This document shows, piece after piece, positions 1 to 15,619 of a DNA stretch of 15,619 nucleotides. Each line of letters begins with the position of its first letter. Position 1 is the first letter of the stretch. The translations under genes and the position numbers were made by a program. Origin of the DNA: a virus. Its lineage: Duplodnaviria; Heunggongvirae; Uroviricota; Caudoviricetes. Below the pieces are notes generated by a model. The model saw nothing but the letters and a program-made list of their open reading frames with translations, searched no databases and was not told where the DNA came from. The DNA lies in IMG/VR virus record IMGVR_UViG_3300035099_000022, positions 1-15,619 of that record; one strand, written 5' to 3'.

Positions 1-1
1 C

Positions 2-1924: not shown

Positions 1925-1941
1925 TTATCTTCCTCCTCAGT

Positions 1942-2007
1942 TTGTCTCCGGTTGTCTCCGGTTGTCTCCGGTTGTCTCCGGTTGTCTCCGGTTGTCTCCG
2001 GTTGTCT
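1942..2007. repeat. 10-nt tandem repeat (GTTGTCTCCG, about 6.5 copies), intergenic
   Basis: Read directly. The minus-strand unit CGGAGACAAC contains GGAG, and the array abuts the collagen-gene RBS. Confidence 0.95.
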
Positions 2008-2099
2008 TTTGTCAACCTGGGTATTGACTAATTGCGAGATGACTTATCGATTTCAACAACGCTTCATAGTTCCGACAACGTTTTTCCCGGCTGATCGTC

Positions 2100-2219
2100 G
2101 TCGTTGGCTCAATCTTCATTGGCTCAATCTTCATTGGCTCAATTTTCGTCGGCTCGATCATCGTCAGCTTGATTGTCGTCAGCTTGATCTTCGTAGACTC
2201 GATTTTTGTCGGCTCGATT
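2100..2219. repeat. Degenerate 15-nt tandem repeat x8 spanning the end of the Zn-ribbon gene
   Basis: Minus-strand units AATCGAGCCGACAAA, AATCGAGTCTACGAA, GATCAAGCTGACGAC ... GATTGAGCCAACGAC. Confidence 0.9.
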
Positions 2220-2531
2220 TCGTAGTGCAACAAACATTTCGATGATCGCGTGAGCGGCGTGCCGCCGGATAATGTGGGTACGTTGCAAGTCAGCCTCAGT
2301 GGCGTTGCCGGCATCATAAATTTGCTCAGCCAGTAATTCATTACGGCACACGTCACGATACAGTTCGAGAGTCTGCGCGGCAGCTAATACAGGGTTGAAT
2401 ACGTCGTTTTTCGGTGGCACCGGCAGAACTTCTTGTTGGTCGCCCCACCAGCCGCAGACTTCACACAAGCGGTCGGCATCTCGGCTGCTCTCTAACGGTG
2501 CTGTACAACGGGGACAGAACTCAGCCATCAT
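2139..2531 (-). CDS. Hypothetical protein with N-terminal Zn ribbon (CPRC...CEVC)
   Basis: MMAEFCPRCTAPLESSRDADRLCEVCGWW. The ATG at 2531 overlaps the upstream stop (ATGA), so it is preferred over 2546. Confidence 0.75.
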   Translation of the reverse strand: MMAEFCPRCTAPLESSRDADRLCEVCGWWGDQQEVLPVPPKNDVFNPVLAAAQTLELYRDVCRNELLAEQIYDAGNATEADLQRTHIIRRHAAHAIIEMFVALRNRADKNRVYEDQADDNQADDDRADEN

Positions 2532-3295
2532 AGTTCCAGTTCGCAAGAGGCGTTGTGCTTGTTGTGCTTAGTGTGCTTAGGGCGCTTAGTATGCTTAGTA
2601 CGCTTAGTGCGCTTAGTGCGCTTCGCGGCAGGCTTCTTTCGTGTTTTTGCCGCTTTCTCGACATGTCGGGTTTCAGCATTCTTTGATCGAGTGTGACGGG
2701 TCCGTCGAGTTGTTGAGTTGCCCTCGGTCGAGGCCATTTTAGTAGATGCAGCAGAAGGTTCTGAAATCTTGATAAAGTCGTCGGAGCCGGATGCATCAAA
2801 GCCGGATGCGTCAGAACCGGATGCGTCAGAACCGGATGCGTCAGAACCGGATGCGTCAGAACCGGATGCGGTGCATGACTCATCGTTACGGTACTTTGCC
2901 GGCTGATTATTAGTCAAAATGGTATATAGCCGGCGGTTCAATTTCTTCCGTGTCCACAGTGGCAAGCCGAAGGGCAGCTTGCCGAATAGTTCCTTTAAGG
3001 CTCGGACACCCGCGGCCTCAATGGCCTTTGTCCAGAGTCGCTTGTGTTTCTCGCATTCTTTCTCAGCCTTCTTTAGCGTCTTTATTAGCCGATGGCTGCG
3101 ATTCACAAAATCCCACACCGGGCGCAATTGGCCATCGCTGTAGGGGACCAACATCCGCACACATGCTTGGTAACGGGCCGGCACTTGGACGCCGTAGATC
3201 TCCTTGCGCCAAGTAATCCTGTAGCCCTCTTCTGAGAACCATGTCTTACGGACCTTCTGGTTCTGACCACGTTTCTTCTTGCGAATGAAGTTCAT
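2528..3295 (-). CDS. Hypothetical protein with (ASGSD)n linker and Lys/Arg/His-rich tail
   Basis: 255-aa ORF with a globular-looking N-terminal half and a low-complexity, basic C-terminal half. Fits between its neighbours. Confidence 0.75.
   Translation of the reverse strand: MNFIRKKKRGQNQKVRKTWFSEEGYRITWRKEIYGVQVPARYQACVRMLVPYSDGQLRPVWDFVNRSHRLIKTLKKAEKECEKHKRLWTKAIEAAGVRALKELFGKLPFGLPLWTRKKLNRRLYTILTNNQPAKYRNDESCTASGSDASGSDASGSDASGSDASGFDASGSDDFIKISEPSAASTKMASTEGNSTTRRTRHTRSKNAETRHVEKAAKTRKKPAAKRTKRTKRTKHTKRPKHTKHNKHNASCELEL
2552..2623. repeat. In-frame 9-nt repeat x8 (K-R/H-T/N)
   Basis: Minus-strand AAGCGCACT-type units encode KRTKRTKRTKHTKRPKHTKHNKHN. Confidence 0.9.
2780..2869. repeat. 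In-frame 15-nt repeat x6 (ASGSD)
   Basis: Minus-strand GCATCCGGTTCTGAC x4 plus two variant copies. Confidence 0.95.
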
Positions 3296-3298
3296 GGC

Positions 3299-3472
3299 TT
3301 AGCTTCCCTTACGTTTGACATAGGCGTCGAACGCTGAGCCAACTGCCATCGGCGGCGGCGTCTGCGGTAGCCGAGGGGCGGCATGTCCGAAAGATACTTG
3401 ACGTAGAACTCATCGGCGTCTTTCTCAAAGAGCGACAAAAACCGAGTAGCTGAGAGACTTCGGGATTCTCAT
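3299..3472 (-). pseudogene. Frameshifted, truncated N-terminal remnant resembling phage PD-(D/E)XK (RecB/Cas4-like) exonucleases
   Basis: Joining frames gives MRIPKSLSYS / VLSLFEKDADEFYVKYLSDM / PRLPQTPPPMAVGSAFDAYVK. This resembles the 'LSYS..S.F....YY..YL....PQT..MA.GSAF' start I associate with that family. It needs two frameshifts (one in a T5 run), and the start frame hits TGA after 15 codons. Confidence 0.55.
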
Positions 3473-3475
3473 GGA

Positions 3476-3910
3476 TCACTTTCGATAACAGTGGAACTTG
3501 TGAAAGCCGCGTTTGAGTTGGGCGGCACAACAGCCGGTGAAGTAGGCCAGGTTCTCTTCCGCCTCATTGGTTTCCTTGGCAAGGCGCAGGCAACGGCCGG
3601 CGCGCCGCAGGTAGCCCGTTGCCATGTGGACCGCCTCGTGGGCCTGGGTTTCCATGCACAGTTGCGTGCGGGCGAACAGGACGTAGCCCAGGGAAGGGTC
3701 GCTTCTCCATTTCCTACGAAGGAACCACTGCCGCTCTTGTGGCATGACGATTGCGCCGAAGCGGTCGTCATGGTCATTGGTGATGTTGAGTTGATGGAAA
3801 CCTTGCCGCATGTGGCTCTTGTTGGCGAATACCAACACGGTCCAGTAATGCGGCGACCGCCGGCCGGCGGGAAAGACCTTGAAACGGGCGATCTCGCCGG
3901 CCAGCTTCAT
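3476..3910 (-). CDS. HExxH-motif protein (putative zincin-like metallopeptidase)
   Basis: HEAVH motif followed by EENLAY. The ATG at 3910 (MKLAGEIARF) is preferred because the ORF-track extension to 4018 looks non-coding. Confidence 0.65.
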   Translation of the reverse strand: MKLAGEIARFKVFPAGRRSPHYWTVLVFANKSHMRQGFHQLNITNDHDDRFGAIVMPQERQWFLRRKWRSDPSLGYVLFARTQLCMETQAHEAVHMATGYLRRAGRCLRLAKETNEAEENLAYFTGCCAAQLKRGFHKFHCYRK

Positions 3911-4014
3911 GCCTTCACACTTGCTGTCGTGGGGCCGTCTGGGACCGGGCCAATGACCTCGGCCACCTTGGCGTCGATGCGCTCTTGGACCTCGGTGGAC
4001 GCTTGAGTCAGGTT

Positions 4015-4614
4015 TCACTTCTTCTGCTTCACGGTGGTTATCTTCTGATTGGCGGGGACGTGCTCACCCATCCAGTCAAAGAAGTACCAGCGGTTGAGGC
4101 AGTCGATAACTGGGTCGTGGGCGATGTGTCGAAGGTAGCGTTTTACTTCGTCCCAAGTTGAAAAGATCATCTCGAAGGGAAGCACACCGAAGAGCCAATC
4201 AGGTGTGTGCTCAATACCTTGCTCGACGCGCACAAGGATGGGCTTCTTCATTCGGTTTGCCCAAGTTAGTTCCTCATAGGTGCCACATGCGTGGACGCGA
4301 AGATCAAGATTGACTACAAGGAAATCGGCGATGTCCACCATTCGCAGATCGACGGGGCGAATCTGCTTCATCTGGTTGCGGACGAATTCATAGTTACCGG
4401 CACATTTTGCTTTCTGGCGCAGGATACGGTTTTCCAAGTCTTCACCGCCAATGTTGATAGGTTTGCGCGTTGGGTCTAACCAGAGGATTTTCAGGTCTTT
4501 TAGGCTTTCGATCAGGTCTTGGCGCCAGCCGATGCCGCCATCCGTTGTGCGATCCATTGCACCACAGAGATAGCCGCGATTCAGCGCCAGTCGGTTCATT
4601 TTGTGTTTGCTCAC
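4015..4614 (-). CDS. Nucleoside 2-deoxyribosyltransferase-like / dNMP N-glycosidase family protein
   Basis: GYLCGAM, DP, DLRMVDIADFLVV, GTYEELTWA...KKP match the NDT/DNPH1 fold motifs. GTGA overlap with deoC. Confidence 0.75.
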   Translation of the reverse strand: MSKHKMNRLALNRGYLCGAMDRTTDGGIGWRQDLIESLKDLKILWLDPTRKPINIGGEDLENRILRQKAKCAGNYEFVRNQMKQIRPVDLRMVDIADFLVVNLDLRVHACGTYEELTWANRMKKPILVRVEQGIEHTPDWLFGVLPFEMIFSTWDEVKRYLRHIAHDPVIDCLNRWYFFDWMGEHVPANQKITTVKQKK

Positions 4615-5258
4615 GGCAACAATTCCTTGTAGTATGAGGAACCGATCCGTGTGCAGCCTAGGTTTAAATAGCGAGCGGCATCGGCATAGGTCTTGATTCC
4701 ACCGCTGGCTTTGACCTGGGCTTTGCCTTTCACAGCTTTAAGTATGGTTCGGACGGCTTCGGGAGTTGCGCCGCCGGCTGCGAAGCCGGTGGAGGTCTTT
4801 ACGAAGTCCACGCCACAGAAAACGCATATTCGGCAGGCTGCTTGAATCTGATTCGGTTGGTAGTAGCAGGTCTCCAAGATGGCTTTGATTTTTACACCGT
4901 GTTTTCGGGCCATGCTGACAAGGGTGCGCAATTCGTGGACCATTACTCCGCGTTGGCCGTCCAGAAAACGGCCGTAGTTGACCACCACGTCGATTTCGGT
5001 GGCTCCACAACTTATGGCTATTGCTGCCTCATGGAGCTTCACGAACGGCAGTGTGTTGCCATGCGGGAAGCCGATGACAGCACAGACTCGTGGCGTGTAG
5101 AGGCGGGCCAATTTTACATTACAAGGGGCTACACACAGGTTGCGGATATTCTCGCGGGTCACCAACCGTGCGGCTCGTCGGATTTCGTTGACAGTGGCCT
5201 CGGGCTTAAGTACCGCCAAGTCCAAGGCATCCGCGATCTGTTTCTTTGTATAGTTCAT
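4611..5258 (-). CDS. deoC: Deoxyribose-phosphate aldolase (DERA)
   Basis: LKP, VIGFPHG, GATEIDVVVN, KAILET, DFVKTSTGF (Schiff-base Lys), VKASGGIKT, RIGSS. Confidence 0.95.
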   Translation of the reverse strand: MNYTKKQIADALDLAVLKPEATVNEIRRAARLVTRENIRNLCVAPCNVKLARLYTPRVCAVIGFPHGNTLPFVKLHEAAIAISCGATEIDVVVNYGRFLDGQRGVMVHELRTLVSMARKHGVKIKAILETCYYQPNQIQAACRICVFCGVDFVKTSTGFAAGGATPEAVRTILKAVKGKAQVKASGGIKTYADAARYLNLGCTRIGSSYYKELLP

Positions 5259-5845
5259 TGCAGGGCTTCTTCTGGCAGAAAGTAGTGTGGATGCACCCCT
5301 TTGACGTTGAAAACTAAGATTTCGACGTGAAACTCCACTTCGGAAAAGATGTTCAAGGGCAGGGTAATGATCGAGGTAATCTGTGCCTTGGTATCACGTA
5401 GCCATCGCCAGCGGGTGCTGTGCTTGCGTTGGTTCAGTCGTAGACCCATCGGAGTGAAAAGTATGAGAGGCACCTTCGCGCCGAACAGTTTGAAGGTGTG
5501 CCGCAAAAAGACCTCGGGGTATAACTGTTTGCTCGGCGCGCCGTTGAATGGCGGATTGCATAGGATCAGGTCTGGCCGGTCCAGACGCTCTAAATCTTCG
5601 TAGCGGCTTAGATGAAACGAATGACATCTGGGTTTGTAGTCAACAACATCCACGCCTGTGATGTGGCAACCAGCTTCGTACCAAGGGTCTGTGAGTCGTC
5701 CTGTACCGATGGCGGGGTCCAAGATGTGTGCCTGAGCTTGGTTCAACACGTTGAATAGGAATCGGGCCACGCTGGACGGTGTATACACGGTGCTGGACTT
5801 AGGGTTATTATTGTAGTTGTTGCGTCTAACTGTCAAGACCGGCAT
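5255..5845 (-). CDS. Orphan amino-DNA methyltransferase (probably N6-adenine), motif I before motif IV
   Basis: YTP, ILDPAIGTGRL (motif I), LCNPPF (motif IV). Start ATG 5845 has AAGGTG upstream. Confidence 0.85.
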   Translation of the reverse strand: MPVLTVRRNNYNNNPKSSTVYTPSSVARFLFNVLNQAQAHILDPAIGTGRLTDPWYEAGCHITGVDVVDYKPRCHSFHLSRYEDLERLDRPDLILCNPPFNGAPSKQLYPEVFLRHTFKLFGAKVPLILFTPMGLRLNQRKHSTRWRWLRDTKAQITSIITLPLNIFSEVEFHVEILVFNVKGVHPHYFLPEEALQ

Positions 5846-6312
5846 CGGCGCACCTTGTAGGATAGGGTCCACAGCTTACGTTCACGCCCGTTGATGTGGC
5901 TGTGGCCGAAATAGGGCCAATAATCGTGCATGGCTTCATGGACTACGACCATTGCTCCGTCTTCTGCGGGCCAAGTGAGCACTTCAGGATCGATGCAGAT
6001 GCCAGGACAGTGTGGCATGTTGATGCCAATGGTTTTCTGCTCATCGAGACCGATGCATGGGGCCACCATGACACTCCATGCGCCCGCGCGGTTGTAACGC
6101 TGGATAGTGTAGTCTAGGATTCCTTGTAAGTCAGCATCGTCGCATTGCTTCCGCATTCGTTTCAAGTGGTCGATGGCTCTGTTGAGCCACGCCTGCTCGT
6201 ATTGATGGTCTCCGCAGAGACCGTACCACAGGCCACCCACGTAAGGCGCGGCGGTCCAGATGAAGACACCCAGTAGAAAGCCGCGAAAGACGGTGCAGGC
6301 GTGGTACTTCAC
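5833..6312 (-). CDS. Membrane-anchored HExxH protein (putative metallopeptidase)
   Basis: Hydrophobic N-terminal segment FLLGVFIWTAAPYVGGLW and motif VVHEAMHDYWPYFGHSH. The GTG at 6312 overlaps the ligase stop (GTGA). Confidence 0.65.
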   Translation of the reverse strand: MKYHACTVFRGFLLGVFIWTAAPYVGGLWYGLCGDHQYEQAWLNRAIDHLKRMRKQCDDADLQGILDYTIQRYNRAGAWSVMVAPCIGLDEQKTIGINMPHCPGICIDPEVLTWPAEDGAMVVVHEAMHDYWPYFGHSHINGRERKLWTLSYKVRRCRS

Positions 6313-7454
6313 AGTTCGCCCTCGTCTTTTGCGCCGTGGCGGTTTAAGTAATCTGCTGCGACTGATTTCAAGATCAGTCGGCCGAAGCAACATTGTTGTT
6401 CGACAAGGGGCGTAATTACAATTCCCTCACGGCCCTTGAATCTTGACTTGACTTTATCGGCTACTGTCGTCGGGCCGCACGTTAGTTGATCTACTAATTC
6501 CGGATGAAATGGGCCTTTGTAAAGCAATGGAACCGTTGGTACGTTATAGCGGTCGCAAAAACTTTTGAGCAGCGACCAGTCTTGGTAGGAACCGTTGATG
6601 CTGAGGTCGAAGCATCGCCAGCCGACTTCACCTGCAGGAATCCCGTAGTCTAAATCCTGGATGCCGGGGCCAAATAACTCGCCAAAAAGAATCACGTCGT
6701 CAGTCCGTTCGCCTCGATCACGGTTGCAGAGATCGGTGAGCAAGCCAAGTACACCTGCAAGCCGCGCAGGGTACCAGTAGATGGATTCTTGCCCTTCGGG
6801 CTCGAACCTCTTGCGAGCTGTTTTGTTGGAGCCGGCATAAAATAACCACTTGCCATCGACTTTCAACCAGCCTATGCGCGAGCATGTTCCGTGAATTTTC
6901 TCGGTTATTCTTACAGGCGTTCCTGGCTCTAGCAAGTGTCGGTATTTGCGGTAGTGCTGAATGTCGGTGTAGTGGTGGAAGTTGACTGGCTCCTGGACGA
7001 ATCCGCCCCAAACCGTGCCGCGGTTGATTCGTGCCGGCGGTTCATACTTGATGCCACGGAATTGTTCCGTTACGTCCACACCTGTCACGTCCACACCTGT
7101 TACGCCCCTACCTGTTACGTCCCCGCCCGGTGCCACCGACTTGCTCAGCACTGAGAGCGGTTGAACGAACCCATAGCTGGGCACGCCTCGCAGCCGGCAG
7201 GCTGCCACGCGACATGGTATCCGTTGGTTGTTGTAGGGGGCGGTCTTAAGGTACTTCTGGATACCTAGGGTTTCTGATACGTTGCTGGGGAGGCAGATGT
7301 CCGGTGGGAAATAGATGCATAAGTCACCGACCTTGAATTGACCCTTGACGATTAGCGTCTGTGTGCCGGCTACCTTAGCGATCTCCAGGTGATCTGCGTC
7401 AGGATGTGGCTCGATGGCTTCGATGCGTTCAACAGTGATGTTGACTTCACTCAT
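6309..7454 (-). CDS. ATP-dependent RNA ligase, DRB0094/Rnl5 family
   Basis: N-terminal IEPHPDADHLEIAKV...GQFKVGDLCIYFPPD, KYEPP, motif I TEKIHGT, FGELFGPGIQ, FD, VPLLYKG, REGIVI, LKSV. Confidence 0.9.
   Translation of the reverse strand: MSEVNITVERIEAIEPHPDADHLEIAKVAGTQTLIVKGQFKVGDLCIYFPPDICLPSNVSETLGIQKYLKTAPYNNQRIPCRVAACRLRGVPSYGFVQPLSVLSKSVAPGGDVTGRGVTGVDVTGVDVTEQFRGIKYEPPARINRGTVWGGFVQEPVNFHHYTDIQHYRKYRHLLEPGTPVRITEKIHGTCSRIGWLKVDGKWLFYAGSNKTARKRFEPEGQESIYWYPARLAGVLGLLTDLCNRDRGERTDDVILFGELFGPGIQDLDYGIPAGEVGWRCFDLSINGSYQDWSLLKSFCDRYNVPTVPLLYKGPFHPELVDQLTCGPTTVADKVKSRFKGREGIVITPLVEQQCCFGRLILKSVAADYLNRHGAKDEGEL
7065..7124. repeat. In-frame 15-nt repeat x4 (x-D-V-T-G) inside the RNA ligase
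   Basis: Encodes GDVTG RGVTG VDVTG VDVTE. Confidence 0.85.
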
Positions 7455-7496
7455 GCCTTTTACCCACGCTTTTCACTCACGCTTTTCACTCACGCC
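7446..7496. repeat. 13-nt tandem repeat x4 including the RNA ligase start codon
   Basis: Minus strand reads GGCGTGAGTGAAA AGCGTGAGTGAAA AGCGTGGGTAAA AGGCATGAGTGAA; the last copy carries the ATG. Confidence 0.85.
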
Positions 7497-7533
7497 TATT
7501 GACCGATGTAAAGGTTCGACCGATGTGCAAGTA

Positions 7534-7680
7534 TTAAAGCACCCTCTTCGTCTGTGTGACAATGGCGGCCACGGCCACAATGCCGCAAATGGTGATGATG
7601 GCAACAGGTGCCTCGCAGGTCAGGGTCATGACGACTGCGCCGGCGAGTATGCTAATAATCAAGGTTACGAGTCCGCCCAT
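7534..7680 (-). CDS. Small two-TM membrane protein (48 aa), not in ORF track
   Basis: MGGLVTLIISILAGAVVMTLTCEAPVAIITICGIVAVAAIVTQTKRVL*, with SD CAGGAG 7 nt upstream of the ATG. Confidence 0.7.
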   Translation of the reverse strand: MGGLVTLIISILAGAVVMTLTCEAPVAIITICGIVAVAAIVTQTKRVL

Positions 7681-7688
7681 GTTGGGTC

Positions 7689-7744
7689 TCCTGCGTGAGT
7701 TTCCTGCGTGAGTTTCCTGCGTGAGTTTCCTGCGTGAGTTTCCT
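7689..7744. repeat. 13-nt tandem repeat x4 (TCCTGCGTGAGTT) from a stop codon to the next RBS
   Basis: Minus strand reads TAG GAAACTCACGCAG x3 GAAACTCACGCAGGAG ACCCAAC ATG. Confidence 0.95.
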
Positions 7745-8309
7745 AGGTCTTGGATTTCCGTTTGCGACTCTTCGGGGTCGCATTTTCTATCTTATTGAGC
7801 AACGGGATTACTGAATCGATTTCCCCTGTCAGAACATGTGTGAAGGGAATATGCCATTCGTACAAGCAGGTGACGATGAAGTCATCCATTTCAAGGGCTT
7901 GATTCAGGTCTTCATACCGACCAGCCTGTTCATAGACGACAAACGGCGACCGAGCTACGTAGAAGTTGATCGAGGGATAGCTCCCCTCGAATCGTTTGGC
8001 AATGCGCCAAAGTTCATTTGCGGCTTTTTGCTTGTGTCGCAGGGCATACATGCATTGCAAATAGATTGGGCTGTCGGTCACGATCCATTTCACACCAGCC
8101 TGTAAGAGTCGGTCTTCCAGATGCAATTGGCTGGCAAACGTGTAAACGTAGTCAAATGACTTGATCTCCCGGCTTAAGTAGGCCCAATTCTTGACCCATT
8201 CTTGAACCAACTCGGCTGAATGGCCGTGTTGACGCAACCAACTATAAGTCATAGCGGCCAGTGTGGACTTACCGACACCAGGGCCCCCATAGAAATTTAC
8301 TCGCATCAT
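7743..8309 (-). CDS. P-loop NTPase/kinase, NadR-type (AAA_28-like)
   Basis: Walker A GGPGVGKST near the N-terminus and Walker B-like WIVTDSP. Confidence 0.8.
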   Translation of the reverse strand: MMRVNFYGGPGVGKSTLAAMTYSWLRQHGHSAELVQEWVKNWAYLSREIKSFDYVYTFASQLHLEDRLLQAGVKWIVTDSPIYLQCMYALRHKQKAANELWRIAKRFEGSYPSINFYVARSPFVVYEQAGRYEDLNQALEMDDFIVTCLYEWHIPFTHVLTGEIDSVIPLLNKIENATPKSRKRKSKT

Positions 8310-9028
8310 TCTCCTTTCATCCGCTTGATAGTCTGGTGGTAGTAAGATTCGCAGTTTAAACAGAGCCGACAGTATGCGCCCTCCAGACTGCCGCAGTGCG
8401 AGATGAGTCGATTACCCTTGTATTGGGCCAGCACATAGCGAATGAATGATGCCGTAGGACACCAATAAGAATTGATATGTCGCACGCGCCACTCGTAGCA
8501 CGGGCCGCCCACGGCTGCCAAGACTTCGGCCGGCGGTTTTGGCTCAGCCTCATAGTAGGCCAGGAAGGTCAGAACTACTGGAATCTGCTTTTCAGTGAAC
8601 CATTCGGCAGCCAATTTGACGTTGTTGAGATTGGTACTGGATACCCGTAGTCGAATGAACATGAGGTTATCAGGCACCCCGTTTTGTAGGGCTGGCGGGA
8701 TGCGCACAGGTTGCTCTTCGGCTGGGTTAGCGGTCCAGACGACGGGGCCCGGAAAATCGAAGCGGGGAATTGCTGTGTTGAAGAAGACACGTTTAAACTG
8801 CTTGGCGGTTTCAATCACCAGGTCACGCTGATTGTTGCTATCGTTCCCACAGTTCATGCGAACAATGCCGTTGCCAACTTCCTCGGGTGTCGGGACACTT
8901 GGCACTTCAGTGTAGAAGGCACCTGGTCGATTGAAAAAACATTGATTGCAACCCACGGGGCACAATCCCGCCTGTGGGATGCAATCATACAAGTTGCTGC
9001 CATCTTGTTTCGGATTGCGCTTTGTCAC
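8306..9028 (-). CDS. Radical-SAM-motif protein (CxxxCxxC)
   Basis: CPVGCNQCFF near the N-terminus and an extra Cys cluster CRLCLNC near the C-terminus. ATGA overlaps on both sides. Confidence 0.65.
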   Translation of the reverse strand: MTKRNPKQDGSNLYDCIPQAGLCPVGCNQCFFNRPGAFYTEVPSVPTPEEVGNGIVRMNCGNDSNNQRDLVIETAKQFKRVFFNTAIPRFDFPGPVVWTANPAEEQPVRIPPALQNGVPDNLMFIRLRVSSTNLNNVKLAAEWFTEKQIPVVLTFLAYYEAEPKPPAEVLAAVGGPCYEWRVRHINSYWCPTASFIRYVLAQYKGNRLISHCGSLEGAYCRLCLNCESYYHQTIKRMKGE

Positions 9029-9288
9029 GAGTCATCCTTTTCCAACAAGATATCTTGGGCCTCCTCAAAAAGGTAGTCTTTCGTCAAATTGCCAACAACT
9101 TGGATCAGGAAACCAGCCCAGTAGATGATGCGCGGTCGATCGTCTTTCAATTTGGCGGCTTCCAGCTCATCCAGAGCGTACAAGACACGCTTGCCTTTCT
9201 TCGTGTAGTCGTCGGGGTTGAGATTCAATTCGGCTACAACAAAAGAGTTTTTGTCGTCTGCCAACTGATGCAAGGATTCTTTATTCAT
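9025..9288 (-). CDS. Hypothetical protein (87 aa)
   Basis: MNKESLHQLADDKNSF... The ATG at 9288 follows pentamer array C; the ORF-track start at 9327 lies within the repeat. Confidence 0.7.
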   Translation of the reverse strand: MNKESLHQLADDKNSFVVAELNLNPDDYTKKGKRVLYALDELEAAKLKDDRPRIIYWAGFLIQVVGNLTKDYLFEEAQDILLEKDDS

Positions 9289-9435
9289 GTTGTCGTCTCG
9301 CCCTTGCCTCGCCTTTGCCTCGCCCATTTGCCTCGCCTATTTGCCTTGCCTTGCCTTGCCTTGCCTTGCCACGCCTAGCCCGGCCTCGCCGTGCCCAGCC
9401 GCGCCCAGCTATGCCTGGCCGTGCCACGCCACGTT
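9289..9435 (-). repeat. (GGC-NN)n pentamer array C; candidate VIPR-type guide RNA
   Basis: Starts at the phosphoesterase stop: AAC-GT, then NN = GT AC CA AT TG GC TG AC GA CG TA GT (one AGC variant unit), GGCAA x6 (9341-9370), then degenerate GGCGA/GGCAA units up to the next ATG. Confidence 0.9.
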
Positions 9436-10237
9436 AAATCACCAATGCAGTTGCCTTTTGTGATTTCAACTTCGCCATCACTGGCTCGAAGCGTGTCACC
9501 TCGCCACGGTGGGTCTCGAAGACAATGAATCCAAAATCAACTAACCCCTCACACCTGCGCGATCCGAACCGCGTTCCCATTGCTTGCAGCGCCGGTGTCG
9601 TTAGTTGTAGGCGCGGCTCGATAGTGTCCATCGCAGCGTTGAAATAGTGGACGTGCGAACGAACTAGGACGTTGGCTCGCGGTGCATAGTCCCGGTCAGC
9701 CCAGAGAATATTCCAAAGGGCCGCCTTCTTTAGTCCTGTGCCCCGTGTTGTGGGAACCTGTGAGCCACTGATGAAGTGTTTAAAATCGAACATGACGCCG
9801 CCGATTTCGACCCACTCATGTGCGCCGATTTTCTCAGCCTTTAATTCCTTAGCGATGTCGTTTTCCCACTCTTCCTGGTCGCCTGTGTGGTAGGCCGTGC
9901 CGTAGGTCATCACTAACTTTGGATTGCCCACAAGTGCCTGCCGGATGGCATAGCACGCCATGTCAACTTGTTCTTGGCGGTTGGTGGTAATTTGTTCGCA
10001 CCCACCGGAACGATCGCCGCGACCGTCAATGGCGTCGCCGTTGATGACCACCAAGTCATACGGGCCGTTGGCCACCACATTTTTGATGTACCACTGCCAC
10101 GCCTCTCGCTGGATTAAAGCGAATTTCACCCGCTTCGTGCGGCCGTTTGATTCGGATGAATCAGTCTGCCATGCGGGCGGCGTCAAGCCGACTAAGTGGC
10201 CACAATGTAGGTCCGCCAATACAAGGGTTCGCTTCAT
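9434..10237 (-). CDS. Calcineurin-like metallophosphoesterase
   Basis: LADLHCG, INGDAIDG, FKH and SHVH motifs. GTAYH sits at the usual GNH position. Confidence 0.85.
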   Translation of the reverse strand: MKRTLVLADLHCGHLVGLTPPAWQTDSSESNGRTKRVKFALIQREAWQWYIKNVVANGPYDLVVINGDAIDGRGDRSGGCEQITTNRQEQVDMACYAIRQALVGNPKLVMTYGTAYHTGDQEEWENDIAKELKAEKIGAHEWVEIGGVMFDFKHFISGSQVPTTRGTGLKKAALWNILWADRDYAPRANVLVRSHVHYFNAAMDTIEPRLQLTTPALQAMGTRFGSRRCEGLVDFGFIVFETHRGEVTRFEPVMAKLKSQKATALVI

Positions 10238-10430
10238 TGTTATGTCTTATCTTGTTTTGCCCTTGTCTTGTCTTGTTTTGTCTTGTCTTGTTTTGTCTTG
10301 CCTTGCCTTGCCTTGCCTTGCCTTGCCTTGCCTTGCCTTGCCTTGCCTTGCCTTGCCCCGCCACGCCGTGCCTCGCCAAGCCGGGCCCTGCCTAGCCCAG
10401 CCACGCCGAGCCGCGCTGTGTCGTGTCGCA
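10238..10430 (-). repeat. (GGC-NN)n pentamer array B; candidate VIPR-type guide RNA
   Basis: Begins a few nt after the RAMP-gene stop: GAC-AC GAC-AC AGC-GC, then NN = TC GT TG TA AG CC TT GA AC GT GG, GGCAA x12 (10298-10357), then GACAA/AACAA units up to ATG 10237. Confidence 0.9.
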
Positions 10431-10433
10431 AAA

Positions 10434-11015
10434 TTACGCTTTCTCCCAGCTTGTGACTTGAAATTTTCCGTAGACACCGCGGAATGTTCCTAGTCCAATA
10501 GCTACGCCAGACTTCACAAGGAGATTCTGCACTGTTTCTTCTTTCACCTCGTCATTTTCAAACAAGGTTAACGTGAACCGCAGTTCCCAGGGTAAAGGCA
10601 GTACAGGCCGCACCTTGGGATTCGGAATGCCGTTCCTCAACCGGGCCACGGCCCGATGAATGTAGCAACCTGATTTAGGATCACGTTCTTGAGCATCGAA
10701 ACCACTGAAAACGATGGGTTGGCCCTCACGGAGAAAGGGAATCTCCATCGGGTCGACGCTCACAAAGCTGCAAAGAGCTGCAGCCATTCGTTTGTATTTA
10801 CGGGAGTCGAGGAATCGTTTCGGAGCGCTTGGTGTGTTTTGTGCCGATAACAGAGAAAGGATGTTGGCAGACGGCAGGTAAATTGTGTTGTCGCTCTGCA
10901 GGTAAAGTTTTTGGTCTGGTCTCAGTTCCGTTCGATTGTCGCCTGCATAGCGATCGAACATGATATCGCTGATTCCAGTCAGCGTAATTTTGCGCAAAAT
11001 GTCGGTTGTTTTCAT
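10434..11015 (-). CDS. vipr: Cas7/RAMP-like protein, candidate Vipr effector (193 aa)
   Basis: RAMP-like pattern: N-terminal strand ITLTGISDIMF, IYLPSANILSLL (cf. Cas7 'IPGSSLKG'), RPVLPLPWELRFTL, and C-terminal Gly-rich loop GVAIGLGTFRGVYGKFQV. SD AAGGAG precedes ATG 11015. Flanked by GGC-NN arrays. The symbol is assigned from locus architecture and my recollection of the literature, not from a search. Confidence 0.75.
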   Translation of the reverse strand: MKTTDILRKITLTGISDIMFDRYAGDNRTELRPDQKLYLQSDNTIYLPSANILSLLSAQNTPSAPKRFLDSRKYKRMAAALCSFVSVDPMEIPFLREGQPIVFSGFDAQERDPKSGCYIHRAVARLRNGIPNPKVRPVLPLPWELRFTLTLFENDEVKEETVQNLLVKSGVAIGLGTFRGVYGKFQVTSWEKA

Positions 11016-11100
11016 CTGCAATCTCCTTTAGGTCTTGTACGAAGTCATCTGGGTCAGGGACGGGAATTTCGTCACGTGTCGTGAGACGAAAGATAGAAAC

Positions 11101-11160
11101 GGTGCGTGTCATTTAGGTGCGTGTTATTTAGATACGTGTTATTTAGATGCGTGTCATTTA
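11101..11160. repeat. 15-nt tandem repeat x4 (TAAATRACACGYAYC on the minus strand) between array A and the RAMP gene
   Basis: TAAATGACACGCATC TAAATAACACGTATC TAAATAACACGCACC TAAATGACACGCACC. Confidence 0.9.
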
Positions 11161-11165
11161 GAAGC

Positions 11166-11260
11166 TTGCCTTGCCTTGCCTTGCCCTGCCGCGCCCGGCC
11201 ATGCCCCGCCCAGCCATGCCCCGCCTTGCCCCGCCCAGCCTAGCCCAGCCCAGCCGCGAC
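11166..11260 (-). repeat. (GGC-NN)n pentamer array A; candidate VIPR-type guide RNA
   Basis: GTC-GC, then 18 perfect GGC units with NN = TG TG TA TG GG AA GG AT TG GG AT CG GC AG AA AA AA AA. Confidence 0.9.
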
Positions 11261-11280
11261 GATTTGTTACACTGGTTCGT

Positions 11281-11472
11281 TTATCCTCGTCCTCGGGTCT
11301 TGCGCGGGTGTCCATCTTCGTATTTGTTGTGGCCTTTGGGCGGTTTTATAAGTACGCGATGTACTTTCGTGGCGCCGCACTTCGCACAACGGGTGGGTTG
11401 CTTGGCGTCCATTGCCTGAAACTCTTCACTCTTATTGCCACACACACTGCATTCAAGGTCGTAGAGTGGCAT
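11281..11472 (-). CDS. FmdB-family Zn-ribbon protein (63 aa)
   Basis: MPLYDLECSVCGNKSEEFQAM....RCAKCG....RV. SD AAGGA precedes ATG 11472. Confidence 0.8.
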   Translation of the reverse strand: MPLYDLECSVCGNKSEEFQAMDAKQPTRCAKCGATKVHRVLIKPPKGHNKYEDGHPRKTRGRG

Positions 11473-11698
11473 CAGATAGTCCTTTCGGCGTGGTTTGCGG
11501 ACGTTCAACTACTACCACATTGTAAAGGTTCCTAAGAGTCACACGCCTACCGACAGGGTTGTAGCCAACGATGTTGGCTTCACTCACTTGGCTGACATTT
11601 AATTGCGCCAAGCCCATCATTGAACCGCGCCGCCACGAGTACACAACGAGGTCGCCAGGACGAATGGTGCGACCCAAATAGTCAACAGGAGTGTTCAT
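11453..11698 (-). CDS. Small hypothetical phage protein (beta-rich, possibly SH3/KOW-like)
   Basis: DYLGRTIRPGDLVVY pattern; fits the gene spacing. Confidence 0.65.
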   Translation of the reverse strand: MNTPVDYLGRTIRPGDLVVYSWRRGSMMGLAQLNVSQVSEANIVGYNPVGRRVTLRNLYNVVVVERPQTTPKGLSDATLRP

Positions 11699-11829
11699 AC
11701 GCGCTCTTCGATTGGAAGGGATTGGAAAACAACCGGTGGTTCCTTCTTCTGTTTTGGCAACGGTGTCGCTCTAAATACCACTTCGTAAACGGGGAACCAA
11801 TTTGGCGTCCTATAAAGTTCAGAATGTGA

Positions 11830-12606
11830 CTAAGGATTGACGGTCTCCAAAGCGGCTGTTTGGTGCCTGGCTGATGCCCACAACTTTTCGGACACTGATT
11901 TCAGCCCGTGTTCCTTGGCAATTTCAGCACAGTAGATCGGATTCAGCTCGACTGACACAGTATTGCGGTTGATGCGTTTACACACACGAAGTACCGTGCC
12001 TGTCCCGGAAAACAAATCGAGTACATCGTCCCCCTCGCGGGTGGATAGTTTAATAGCCCGTTCGACCAGGGCCTCGGGATGCTGTGTAGGATGCCAACGT
12101 CGTCGTTCCTTGGCGTTGCCTACAACACGCGGAAATTCAGTCCAAGCATCCAAGGGTACTCGGCCGCCGGCTGCCGCACGTTTGTCGTTATGCAACAACC
12201 GCCATGAGGCCACCTTGATCTGGTTTGGATAAAGTGGGGCATTTTTCTTGCGAAAACGAAGTATTGGTCGGTGTCCGGGGCCGCAGTCAGAGCTGCGGTA
12301 CTGTCCAAAGGTGAACGTCCAAACGAAGGGCTTGATTTTCAGCCACGGCCGTTGGGCACCAAATTGATAAGCCCAATGTTTGACAGCTAAATCCCATTTG
12401 GCGTTGTAACTCAGCCATGTTATGTCGCAGTGTGGGATCGTGGCCTCCACGACTTGGATCAGCCAGTCGATGTAGCCATCAACCGGACGATCTCTATAGC
12501 CGTTGTAATTCAATCCAAGAGCATCGGGTGGGTCTAAAAAAGCACAAGCGAAGTCTGGCAAGGATGGCAGCACTTCAAGGACATCTGCGTTAATCAACTG
12601 GTGCAT
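11830..12606 (-). CDS. Beta-class (N4-C/N6-A) DNA methyltransferase with DPPD motif IV
   Basis: INADVLEVL, FLDPPD, WLSY, HPTQHPEALVERAI, VLDLFSGTGT; motif IV precedes motif I. Confidence 0.85.
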   Translation of the reverse strand: MHQLINADVLEVLPSLPDFACAFLDPPDALGLNYNGYRDRPVDGYIDWLIQVVEATIPHCDITWLSYNAKWDLAVKHWAYQFGAQRPWLKIKPFVWTFTFGQYRSSDCGPGHRPILRFRKKNAPLYPNQIKVASWRLLHNDKRAAAGGRVPLDAWTEFPRVVGNAKERRRWHPTQHPEALVERAIKLSTREGDDVLDLFSGTGTVLRVCKRINRNTVSVELNPIYCAEIAKEHGLKSVSEKLWASARHQTAALETVNP

Positions 12607-12860
12607 GGATCAAGAGCCTCTTCAACGTCCCAGTCCTCGTATTCCCGGCGACGGTGAGCAACAAGTAGCCAGCGGATGGCATAGATATCGCCAGCTCGGG
12701 CCTCGGAAATGTGTTTCTCGTCGTCGTTGTAGTAACCTTGCTCATCTAACTGTTTGAATAACTTGCGCTGGGCGGCTTCTAGCTGCTGTGGTGTGTCAAC
12801 GAGCCAATATTTGTCGCCGTGCTCACCATAATAGACCAGAATTTGTACGCCTTTTTTCAT
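12594..12860 (-). CDS. Hypothetical protein (88 aa)
   Basis: ORF coupled by an ATGA overlap upstream, with protein-like composition. Confidence 0.65.
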   Translation of the reverse strand: MKKGVQILVYYGEHGDKYWLVDTPQQLEAAQRKLFKQLDEQGYYNDDEKHISEARAGDIYAIRWLLVAHRRREYEDWDVEEALDPCTS

Positions 12861-13132
12861 TGCTGCATGGGTTCCGAGTAGTTAAGTTTCCGGCGGCGGG
12901 TTACGACAGTATAGGTGCCGAGCCAACCTCCGAGGATGTAGGCGGCTACGGCGGTAAAGCATTTCTCAACGATCAGGACTGTGGAGACGATGGTACAGAG
13001 GTAAAGGACTGCACTCAAGTTGGCAGCCACCAAAGGCCGACATCGGGTGACTGCATCGACGCAAAGCGTCCACACCAGGTCCATTGCAAAGCCGGCGACA
13101 AACGCGATTCCAAGTACAGCTAGGAATGACAT
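12857..13132 (-). CDS. Hypothetical membrane protein (about 3 TM)
   Basis: Three hydrophobic segments and a basic C-terminal tail. SD GAGGA upstream. Confidence 0.7.
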   Translation of the reverse strand: MSFLAVLGIAFVAGFAMDLVWTLCVDAVTRCRPLVAANLSAVLYLCTIVSTVLIVEKCFTAVAAYILGGWLGTYTVVTRRRKLNYSEPMQQ

Positions 13133-13287
13133 ATCAATCCTCAGTCAGTTCACCCGACATGCTGTGACACTTGAGACATTTCAGGTTGGATAGTTCGCTG
13201 TGGGCTGGAGTTATAGCCCGTTCAGGTGTGGCTGCCCAGGTGTGGCTGCTCAGGTATAGCCGCATACGCGGCAGCACGCAAATCCTG

Positions 13288-13575
13288 CTATCCAGCTTTC
13301 GCGTAGTGTTCCAGAGCGTCGAGCACAAGCCAGCCGAATTGGGCTAGGAAGCTGCCGGCGCAGCCGGCAGCAAATACGATCAGCGGATGCAGGCCGAAGA
13401 GCGCTGCGCCCAATAGGATGCCGCACCAGAAACCCGAGCACTGATAGCAGTCCATCAGTTTGACGAGCCACTTGCAGCGCGGCTTGATCCACTTATGGAT
13501 CGGGGCAAAGATTACACTGTCTACGACGATGTGGGTCATGCCGATGACACCTAAGATGAAAAGTGTGAGTTGCAT
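13288..13575 (-). CDS. Membrane protein, DUF1360-like
   Basis: Hydrophobic, with LMDCYQCSGFWCG resembling the CxxCxxxW motif of DUF1360. SD GAGGA lies in the last repeat unit. Confidence 0.65.
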   Translation of the reverse strand: MQLTLFILGVIGMTHIVVDSVIFAPIHKWIKPRCKWLVKLMDCYQCSGFWCGILLGAALFGLHPLIVFAAGCAGSFLAQFGWLVLDALEHYAKAG

Positions 13576-13652
13576 GGTTATTCCTCTGGGTTATTCCTCT
13601 GAGCTATTCCTTTGGGTATTCCTTTGAGCTATTCCTCTGGGCTATTCCTCTG
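13576..13652. repeat. 13-nt tandem repeat x6 running from a stop codon to the next RBS/ATG
   Basis: Minus-strand units CARAGGAATARCY (one 12-nt unit). The first contains the upstream TAG and the last abuts ATG 13575. Confidence 0.95.
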
Positions 13653-13995
13653 GGTATGGGTCTACATCGCATGCTGCTTCAGCCGGCTGGAAGAAAGGAT
13701 TGGGTATTTCCACGACCGGTTGTGGTCTGGGTCGGATTTCAAGACTCTTGTTATCTGTTGTGTTTTTGGCGGGTGTTTGAGGCACTTGTTGCCGAACCAG
13801 GGAGAGCGTAATCGTTGGGATCAAATTGCCAGGGAGCAGCGTATCTTGATCGCCTACGTATTCAATGTTGATGGCGCAATGGTTCAGGTCAGCTCGATCA
13901 GCGGTCTGCGCCAATTTGATGAAAGCATCAGCAATCTGTGGACCAGTCATGGGGGCGGTCTGGATACGATTGAGAATGAAAAGTGGGATGGGCAT
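13642..13995 (-). CDS. Hypothetical protein (117 aa)
   Basis: SD AAAGG before ATG 13995; fills the gap after dut. Confidence 0.6.
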   Translation of the reverse strand: MPIPLFILNRIQTAPMTGPQIADAFIKLAQTADRADLNHCAINIEYVGDQDTLLPGNLIPTITLSLVRQQVPQTPAKNTTDNKSLEIRPRPQPVVEIPNPFFQPAEAACDVDPYPEE

Positions 13996-14031
13996 GATGA
14001 AGCCTTTCTAGTGTTCAGACGACGGTGATTG

Positions 14032-14448
14032 TCATATTCCGGTGCTTCCGAATCCGTTAGCGCCTCGCGACGTGTCGCTCAATTCATTCACCTCTTCCAC
14101 TGCCCAAGTCTCCACTGCTTGGAACAGGACTTGAGCAATCCGGTCCCCGGCTGTAATTTCAAATGGCTTGCCGGATAGATTACAGAGCACCACGCCCCAG
14201 GGGCCGCGATAATCGGAATCAATTACACCGGCAAAGCGGTGAATGCCCTTGGCTCCCATTCCGGAACGGTCCCAGATTAGAGCCACATATCCGCGGGGGA
14301 ATTCCACGGCAATGCCTGTGGGCACAATTACGGTCTTTGCCACAGGGATGATTATGTCCTGGCAGGCATACAGATCGTAGCCTGCGGAGTTATGAGCACG
14401 AGTTGGCAGTTTGGCGGTAGGAACTAGCTTCTTTACTCGAAGAATCAT
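14032..14448 (-). CDS. dut: Trimeric dUTPase
   Basis: All five motifs are present: AGYDL, RSG, GVIDSDYRG, GDRIAQ, RGANGFGSTG. Confidence 0.97.
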   Translation of the reverse strand: MILRVKKLVPTAKLPTRAHNSAGYDLYACQDIIIPVAKTVIVPTGIAVEFPRGYVALIWDRSGMGAKGIHRFAGVIDSDYRGPWGVVLCNLSGKPFEITAGDRIAQVLFQAVETWAVEEVNELSDTSRGANGFGSTGI

Positions 14449-14546
14449 TTGGCAGATTCCAAAGTTGCGGAAAGCCCCGGTGACAGGGATAGCTTAACGA
14501 ATCCAATACGCTGCAGGAAAGCTAAGTACCGCTCAAGATCAGTCAT
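14445..14546 (-). CDS. 33-aa ORF coupled at both ends, not in ORF track
   Basis: MTDLERYLAFLQRIGFVKLSLSPGLSATLESAK*. ATGA overlaps with both the deaminase stop and the dut start. Confidence 0.55.
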   Translation of the reverse strand: MTDLERYLAFLQRIGFVKLSLSPGLSATLESAK

Positions 14547-15043
14547 GGTGTCCAAAGCCTCCCATTGAAAAGGATTGTGAAATCGGAGGTGAATATTTGC
14601 CCGTCGAAATATTCTCGGACAACGCCTGCCTCATCAAGCATCTTATTACCTTCGTCGATGCTTTTTTGCCACCGTTCTGGTGTTTGATCCATCGCCTGTT
14701 TATGGCCAACAACGTGCTTGATGCCGGCTAAAATAATCGCTCGGGCACAATCAGCGCACGCAAACCAAGGGCAAAACAACGTAGCTCCATTTGTCTTAAT
14801 ACCGTGCCGCGCTGCCTCGTAAATTGCAGCCCGCTCGGCGTGCTCTATAAAGGTGTATTTCTGTGGCCGCTCTAGTCTCTCAGCCGATATGACGACGTTG
14901 CCGGGGATCGCATTTACGCCGCTAGTGATTGGCTCGTATCCTTTTGGAACCAGAATGGCTCCATTCTGAGTAGCTGGATCGTTACTCAGGCGTTGAGCAC
15001 GGATGTAGGCAAATCGTAACATGGTTTCATTGGTGTGCAACAT
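14543..15043 (-). CDS. dCMP deaminase (ComEB/T4 cd family)
   Basis: SDP/GA-like NDPATQNGAILV, HAERAAI, PWFACADCARAIILAGI. ATG 15043 follows the RNR stop by 1 nt. Confidence 0.9.
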   Translation of the reverse strand: MLHTNETMLRFAYIRAQRLSNDPATQNGAILVPKGYEPITSGVNAIPGNVVISAERLERPQKYTFIEHAERAAIYEAARHGIKTNGATLFCPWFACADCARAIILAGIKHVVGHKQAMDQTPERWQKSIDEGNKMLDEAGVVREYFDGQIFTSDFTILFNGRLWTP

Positions 15044-15044
15044 T

Positions 15045-15619
15045 TTAGACTCCACAGACGCCGCCGTGTCCGGTTAGACTGCATACATCATGGGCTGCAA
15101 TCGCCTCTTCAAATACCTTGCCAAGATTCTCTCTTGCCTCGGTGTAGCTTACAGGTGTCAGCGGTTGCCCGCCACGGGCGCCGTCAGGATAGACCGTGAA
15201 GCCACGCAGTCGGGGTGCGTAATGGGCCAGGGTGGCGGCAAAGTCTTTAACGGTGTCAAGGTTGTTCAGTCGGCTTCCCCAGCGAGGCAGGTTGATTGTT
15301 GAACTGATTGCTTGGTCAACATAGGATTGAATCTCAACCTGAAACTTGATTCGTCGTCGGTAGTTAGACGCTAGATCGAGAGCGCTTTCTATCATCTCTG
15401 GATTCAAGTCGTAATGGTCGATCAACTCTTGTGCAGCGCTGTCGATTACATATTGATAGTGCCATTTCGCATTTTCGCGGAGATACCGGCGTTTGTAAGC
15501 GACGGCATAAATAGGCTCGATGCCAGTGCTGGTGCCGGCGAGAATTCCAATTGTGCCTGTAGGAGCACACGCCCGCTTGGCTACTGGACGCGAAATGCTT
15601 AGCTTATCGCAAAAGGCGT
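15045..15619 (-). CDS. Ribonucleotide reductase catalytic subunit, C-terminal part (5' partial; class II/NrdJ-like probable)
   Basis: The frame is open to the right edge: APTGTIGILAGTSTGIEP, QSYVDQAISSTINLP, RGFTVYPDGAR, and a C-terminal Cys pair CSLTGHGGVCGV. Class cannot be proven from this fragment. Confidence 0.93.
   Translation of the reverse strand, partial: AFCDKLSISRPVAKRACAPTGTIGILAGTSTGIEPIYAVAYKRRYLRENAKWHYQYVIDSAAQELIDHYDLNPEMIESALDLASNYRRRIKFQVEIQSYVDQAISSTINLPRWGSRLNNLDTVKDFAATLAHYAPRLRGFTVYPDGARGGQPLTPVSYTEARENLGKVFEEAIAAHDVCSLTGHGGVCGV

Follow-up and report, generated by a model that had tools for sequence, protein, structure and literature searches.

A phage locus that probably encodes a VIPR guide RNA with a very long constant GGCAA 3' run, between a minimal RAMP gene and a phosphoesterase gene

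We analyzed a stretch of 15,619 nucleotides from a virus of the Caudoviricetes (IMG/VR record IMGVR_UViG_3300035099_000022, positions 1 to 15,619), hereafter called the window. A tract of pentamer repeats, array B, occupies the space between two genes and is accompanied by two similar tracts, arrays A and C. All coordinates given for the locus refer to the minus strand, on which all genes in this part of the window also lie. For comparison we refer repeatedly to contig L129, which has the same gene order as the window and whose homologue of the 193-aa protein encoded between arrays A and B is 96% identical. The features are listed below from upstream to downstream; the names vipr and vrRNA anticipate the interpretation developed in the text.

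11281-11508, minus: zinc-ribbon (FmdB-type) gene, 75 aa (PF09723, E 6.9e-12)
11166-11255, minus: putative vrRNA array A, upstream of vipr, 14 variable GGCNN units and 4 GGCAA; NN differ in L129
11103-11162, minus: 15-nt repeat in four tandem copies (TCTAAATRACACGYA), after array A and before the vipr ribosome-binding site
10434-11015, minus: putative vipr gene, 193-aa minimal RAMP protein, between arrays A and B
10436-10434, minus: vipr stop codon, TAA
10413-10433, minus: 5' lead-in of array B, 21 nt, from the vipr stop to the first GGC; nearly identical in L129
10358-10412, minus: variable guide segment of putative vrRNA B, 11 GGCNN units
10298-10357, minus: twelve perfect GGCAA units, 3' end of putative vrRNA B
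10238-10297, minus: A/C-rich (G/A)ACAA leader of the downstream gene, 60 nt
9434-10237, minus: calcineurin-like metallophosphoesterase gene, 267 aa, downstream of array B
9341-9430, minus: putative vrRNA array C, 12 variable units (one degenerate, AGCTG) and 6 GGCAA; NN differ in L129

Read in the YNNGG phase, the lead-in of array B consists of two degenerate units, CACGA and CACAG, and one full unit, CGCGG, whose NN is GC; this phasing adds a twelfth NN to the array at its 5' edge. The original prediction had the run start about 10 nt past the effector stop, which is true of the degenerate phase (about 8-10 nt) and not of the first canonical GGC, found at 21 nt. The variable NN are TC GT TG TA AG CC TT GA AC GT GG, exactly the string first described, in which only GT recurs (10 of 11 distinct). 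With the twelve GGCAA they form 23 in-phase GGCNN units without interruption (10412-10298); the corresponding counts are 18 for array A and 17 for array C. The leader then runs through seven in-phase GACAA or AACAA units, a 1-nt phase slip at GGGCAA, and AACAA GATAA GACAT AACA to the ATG at 10237. Apart from that slip, the earlier description of twelve GGCAA followed by about 60 nt of mostly (G/A)ACAA was accurate. The leader is unstructured (MFE 0.0 kcal/mol over its first 45 nt) and has a homologous counterpart in L129, with a different number of repeat units. We found no GGAG, GAGG or AGGA motif upstream of the ATG at 10237, as had been noted for the phosphoesterase gene. This absence is not distinctive: of 20 genes that we checked in the window, about half are likewise without an SD-like motif.

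The repeat tracts are real. A pattern of five GGCNN units matches the window 42 times, whereas 200 dinucleotide-preserving shuffles gave 0.00 matches, and arrays A, B and C are the only such arrays in the whole 81.8 kb genome. All three are on the coding strand, within 2 kb of one another, and each sits between two ORFs: the zinc-ribbon gene stops 25 nt ahead of array A, and array C begins 3 nt past the phosphoesterase stop. The ATG of vipr at 11015 is preceded by AAGGAG, and the ORF list extends the frame to a TTG at 11021. The 15-nt repeats that separate this ribosome-binding site from array A could be an operator or processing element for vipr. Intergenic tandem repeats were also seen at 1942-2007, 7446-7495, 7689-7744 and 13579-13654, where the period is 10 or 13 nt and two of the repeats are without mismatch (100% matches), and the phage seems generally prone to short intergenic tandem amplification.

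The 193-aa product of vipr matches no Pfam and no NCBIfam family. It belongs to a clade with more than 2300 metagenomic homologues at 90% clustering, and a profile of 38 homologues gave a single relevant PDB match, the Vipr protein of Escherichia phage SUSP1 (36pp_D, E 7.5e-5). The match spans the thumb (R138-P139) and the G-loop (GLGTFRG against GVGDWRP), with similarity confined to the C-terminal 50 residues. As to the residues of SUSP1 Vipr that contact GGY, R138 and R179 both align with Arg, W178 with Phe, so that position 178 is still aromatic, and D177 with Thr, and H17 falls outside the aligned stretch. Since D177 is essential in SUSP1, the aligned Thr would count against assigning this family to VIPR. 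We picked 80 viral loci by protein homology alone and then scanned them for arrays. Same-strand GGYNN arrays adjoin the gene in 77 of the 80 loci, 88 of them upstream of it and 86 downstream; on the opposite strand, these loci have just four arrays in all. A scan of IMG/VR by DNA pattern only (ten GGCNN units) gave at least 120 loci; the family is encoded in 42 among the 120 matches listed.

No conserved neighbor of vipr, the vap1 accessory gene included, was found among the 80 loci. A homologue of the zinc-ribbon gene occurs in 0 of the 80, so this gene is not a conserved accessory. The phosphoesterase matches Pfam Metallophos weakly (E 0.005, below the curated cut-off) and has no PDB sequence match and no NCBIfam match. 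It adjoins vipr in 9 of the 80 loci, in both gene orders, and likewise in L129 and in another relative, L134; all four of the phage loci examined that carry more distant homologues have neither vipr nor arrays. The phosphoesterase thus appears to be a common phage gene, and the comparison does not support it as a dedicated partner of the system. Other frequent vipr neighbors in the clade are ordinary replication and recombination genes (YqaJ, ERF, AAA_24, SSB and helicase). Within 6309-10237 on the minus strand of the window, the metallophosphoesterase (9434-10237) is accompanied by an AAA_28 kinase-like gene (7743-8309) and an RNA ligase gene with a PHA02142 OB domain (6309-7454). These are separate genes, which we take to resemble the three activities of bacterial Pnkp-type RNA repair; a phage tRNA-repair module beside the VIPR locus is possible.

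Systems of this kind, CRISPR-like silencers of DNA, were published in 2026 under the name VIPR. In three preprints (bioRxiv 10.64898/2026.04.26.720920,.720927 and 10.64898/2026.10.15.759431), VIPR consists of a minimal RAMP protein, Vipr, and of vrRNAs in which the YNNGG repeats number 9-16 (up to about 30) and precede an invariant 3' tail; the vrRNA is a discrete RNA of about 100 nt that co-purifies with Vipr, and in SUSP1 the engagement of DNA begins at the 3' units. According to the first two (10.64898/2026.04.26.720920,.720927), the GGY of each repeat is conserved and the NN are hypervariable, the NN pair with double-stranded DNA with every third target base skipped, and the systems silence competing mobile elements; those published are described as free of self-targeting.

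We next consider the NN of close relatives. When the window is aligned with L129, lead-ins, leaders and every GGC correspond, and all three arrays have had their NN replaced: in array B, counted by eye unit by unit from the 5' ends, 2 of 22 NN bases agree. Contigs from two hot-spring runs (X2 and X3) agree with the window at about 95% across the genes and part from it exactly where the arrays lie; in the contig of run X3, the array C stretch is replaced by 129 other letters. A DNA search of a phage collection with the locus returned no match. The claim that the tract is a string of guides beside a RAMP gene, with the NN as its information-bearing part, fits published VIPR well, the NN being wholly swapped at 96% Vipr identity. 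From these comparisons of sequence we consider that array B is probably the guide-RNA (vrRNA) gene of a phage VIPR system, with a probability of about 0.82. The locus is another example of a published kind, unusual in the very long constant GGCAA run at its 3' end.

It could be argued that the array is no guide RNA at all and instead serves as a periodic site for another oligomeric RNA-binding protein, in the manner of TRAP attenuation, or as a G-quadruplex leader. Bacillus trp leaders carry (G/U)AG-NN repeats that are bound by the oligomeric protein TRAP, and the 3+2 periodicity seen here is like theirs; GG-N3 repeats could in principle also make two-tier quadruplexes. Neither proposal sits well with the tight genomic link to the Vipr family or with the hypervariable NN, and no Rfam family, hammerhead included, was found in 8900-11800. 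ViennaRNA with G-quadruplexes allowed returned the same MFE structure, with no quadruplex. We regard a function of this sort as extremely improbable. The TRAP-like array, the G-quadruplex leader and a contingency-type simple repeat were all dropped in view of the Vipr link and of the MFE fold.

If array B encodes a guide, its target should follow an NNx pattern, with 80% or more of the NN bases matched as in natural VIPR targets. The full pattern of array B had zero exact matches in the viral, genome and metagenome collections, and that of array A had none in viral contigs. With the first 9 NN of array B (18 of the 22 NN bases) there was one match, at 340-365 of contig L136, where an unannotated 377-aa ORF has the skipped base as the second letter of a codon. 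No match was obtained with the last 9 NN. The last 10 NN (20 of 22) gave one metagenome match, at 12683-12711 of contig L221, in non-coding DNA next to a VanZ-like gene, and none in genomes. Roughly estimated from the length of the patterns and from sizes assumed for the collections, about this number of matches is expected by chance. Neither match lies inside a gene in wobble phase, and both were rejected as targets. A scan of the 81.8 kb genome for self-targets with a skip of 0-3 found nothing above shuffled guides. When 422 guides of the clade were compared with 1.7 Mb of fetched loci, 266 skip-1 matches were obtained, 250 of them from one low-complexity guide on collagen-like repeats; without that guide, skip-1 matches were not enriched over skip 0 or 2. 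The window has a tract that may be of this type, at 2-1924 (minus) and 703-1752 (plus), open on both strands, with 9/18/27-nt periodicity and an 18-mer in about 56 copies, as would fit a collagen-like Gly-X-Y repeat protein. This tract gave spurious NNx matches to a low-complexity guide of another locus.

We then turn to the GGCAA units, of which there are 4 in array A, 12 in array B and 6 in array C. Among 163 arrays of this Vipr clade, NN is AA at 34/58/52/31/28% of the last five units, at about 10-14% further in and at 6-16% at the 5' end. Terminal runs of GGCAA across the clade are 0-5 copies long (178 arrays), and the homologous array B of L129-L132 has 4 GGCAA and a GGTAA. Thus GGCAA at the 3' end is a constant trait of the clade, and a comparison of tail length across related loci, akin to the check on related phage reads that the original prediction had suggested, makes twelve an outlier. 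The proposal that the AA tail is non-targeting is upheld insofar as the comparison marks it as a constant 3' segment; the roles suggested for it in nucleation, processing or as a template gained no such backing. The 45 nt that follow arrays A, B and C are mutually unrelated and unstructured (-0.9, 0.0 and -5.5 kcal/mol), so a pseudoknot tail of the type II style is absent, and (GGCAA)n is the only constant 3' element that the three arrays share. For these reasons the GGCAA units would most likely act as an invariant tail or handle at the 3' end of the vrRNA, and may in this clade replace the structured tail. There is a hint of a correlation between absence of the AA run and a downstream hairpin: in arrays without the run, a structured downstream 45 nt is somewhat commoner, a weak effect (Spearman 0.17, p 0.04, relatedness ignored). 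By analogy with SUSP1, in which DNA is engaged from the 3' units, a long non-pairing AA block at the 3' end would be awkward for this simple model.

Another reading is that the AA units belong to the guide and pair with a target that has TTx repeats beside the specific site. A protomer is expected on each GGC unit, with the NN of that unit presented, and natural vrRNAs have as many as 30 repeats. Against such pairing, AA recurs at the 3' end of unrelated guides across the clade, which means that it is not specified by a target, and no AA/TT phase extends beyond either of the two chance-level candidate sites. We consider this very unlikely, and return to the units as a handle.

The length of the run in array B is a separate matter. 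The simplest explanation is slippage, by which a short simple repeat that began as the conserved terminal units has grown longer. Logan contigs from the run that is the probable source end at 10251 and 10374, and the count of twelve comes from the IMG/VR assembly alone, because no independent contig, among those of three DNA runs, spans the repeat (breaks at 10252-10373). The twelve copies may have no function of their own, whether they are a neutral expansion of the usual 2-4 terminal units or an artefact of their assembly, and those contig breaks fit such an origin. So does the shorter run at the homologous site of L129-L132. Two further contigs, L133 and L134, encode the same Vipr protein, yet have 8 and 6 GGCAA copies in one array (the L133 contig ends 16 nt past the run), the 15-nt repeats after array A number four here and two in L129, and the window has many other intergenic tandem repeats. 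The runs of all three arrays are nevertheless longer than is typical of the clade and none of the arrays has a structured tail, which leaves room for selection on run length. A functionless run is a real possibility, to which we give rather less than even odds.

The relatives also differ in the layout of their arrays. At 6549-6962 of L133 and 686-1099 of L134, a Vipr gene whose product is 78% identical is followed by four tandem vrRNAs with a repeated spacer of about 37 nt between them. Each of these finishes with 2-4 GGCAA, and a fifth array lies past the phosphoesterase gene; in L134, a DEAD-box helicase gene is found further downstream. In L137, likewise a 78% identical relative, both arrays (4589-4740 and 5556-5700) finish with GGCAA GGCAA GGTTN, after which comes a conserved hairpin of about 16 bp, so structured and unstructured 3' ends coexist in the clade. 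A Vipr of this clade (E 2e-94) is encoded at 30424-31038 of the cultured Burkholderia phage vB_E436 (PQ789831.1), where it is annotated as a hypothetical protein; array and gene together lie at 2074-2782 in the numbering of contig L222. This phage has a single upstream array of 14 units, with GGA alternating with GGC, that finishes GGCGA GGCGA 25 nt before the vipr ATG.

How the guides are made may be read from their position. Arrays of the clade start a median of 10 nt past the upstream stop and end a median of 23 nt ahead of the next start; that the array doubles as a 5' leader of the next gene, as was originally proposed for array B, is thus borne out in position and holds for the clade in general. 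On the coding strand in 9000-12000 we found neither a sigma-70 promoter-like nor a terminator-like site. With the genes not separated by any such site, the vrRNAs probably arise when a polycistronic transcript is cut or trimmed. The sequencing runs listed for the stretch include no RNA run. The (G/A)ACAA stretch looks like an unstructured leader of the next gene, related to GGCAA by G-to-A decay. Its units should not be bound by Vipr, which in the solved structure of the SUSP1 complex contacts a GG that they do not have.

The same arrangement raises the question of whether the array acts on its neighbors. Coating of the 23 units by Vipr, or excision of the vrRNA, might control translation of the phosphoesterase or stability of its mRNA, with array A feeding back on vipr; the VIPR identity of the locus would be unchanged. 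Such control would be in keeping with arrays that nearly fill the intergenic spacers, with genes separated by neither promoter- nor terminator-like sites, and with a phosphoesterase leader devoid of an SD-like motif. The last bound unit would, however, stop 60 nt short of the ATG, and the (G/A)ACAA units in between have no GG for Vipr to contact. In addition, about half of the window genes are equally without an SD-like motif, and the phosphoesterase is not a dedicated partner. We judge downstream control to be unlikely.

Taken as a vrRNA gene, array B would work as follows. The vrRNA would be cut or trimmed out of the polycistronic transcript, with the GGCAA units as its constant 3'-terminal part, as comparison within this Vipr clade suggests. 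By extension from the published work on SUSP1 and Pseudomonas fulva, each GGY would be bound by one Vipr protomer and flipped out, and the NN presented; the filament would read double-stranded DNA with one base skipped per dinucleotide (NNx) and repress transcription of a rival mobile element. A more elaborate version, which we find unlikely, holds that the vrRNAs of this clade have no structured cap and use the GGCAA run as their 3' handle, that their excision and coating by Vipr are coupled to the flanking genes, vipr among them, and that the run sets filament length or supplies blank units for new guides.

Experimental work on VIPR covers type II, whose guides are capped by a pseudoknot. 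The clade described here is very large (more than 2300 homologues, with arrays at 77 of 80 loci), and its GGCAA-ended guides wedged between ORFs are relevant to the making and capping of vrRNAs in systems other than type II. The AA run, at 0-12 copies, offers a natural length series for probing the role of the 3' end, and the cultured relative vB_E436 makes the clade open to experiment.

Several known systems invite comparison. TRAP leaders are alike in having a triplet with a 2-nt spacer in an mRNA leader, an oligomeric protein and possible downstream control. This is a resemblance only: the triplet and the protein family are different, and the spacers here are variable and information-bearing. 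The backbone subunits of class 1 CRISPR systems (Csm3/Cas7) with their crRNA have a 6-nt period, compared with 5 nt here. Unlike class 1 CRISPR, the locus has no repeats and spacers (a search for direct repeats of about 24-48 nt with unique spacers gave none), the single RAMP is its only cas-type gene, and in VIPR the pairing of dinucleotides to double-stranded DNA is noncontiguous. VIPR types I and III-VII (staggered, ribozyme-interspersed or single vrRNA), as described in the preprints, share the GGY/NN or a related consensus, variable accessory genes and a viral context; unlike the ribozyme-interspersed types so described, this locus has no hammerhead or other Rfam family near its arrays. 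The closest comparison is with type II VIPR of Escherichia phage SUSP1 and of a Pseudomonas fulva prophage, which comprises Vipr, vap1 and vrRNAs. There the vrRNAs of a locus have in common a pseudoknot tail of about 40 nt, whereas here there is only the GGCAA run, in 4, 12 and 6 copies; this locus also has no conserved vap gene, and its arrays are set between ORFs within an operon, with stop and start codons only a few nucleotides away. What the locus shares with type II is a minimal RAMP of about 200 aa with thumb and G-loop, same-strand arrays of GGY-NN pentamers that flank its gene in a phage, invariant GGY with hypervariable NN, a variable tract followed by a constant 3' part, and freedom from self-targeting.
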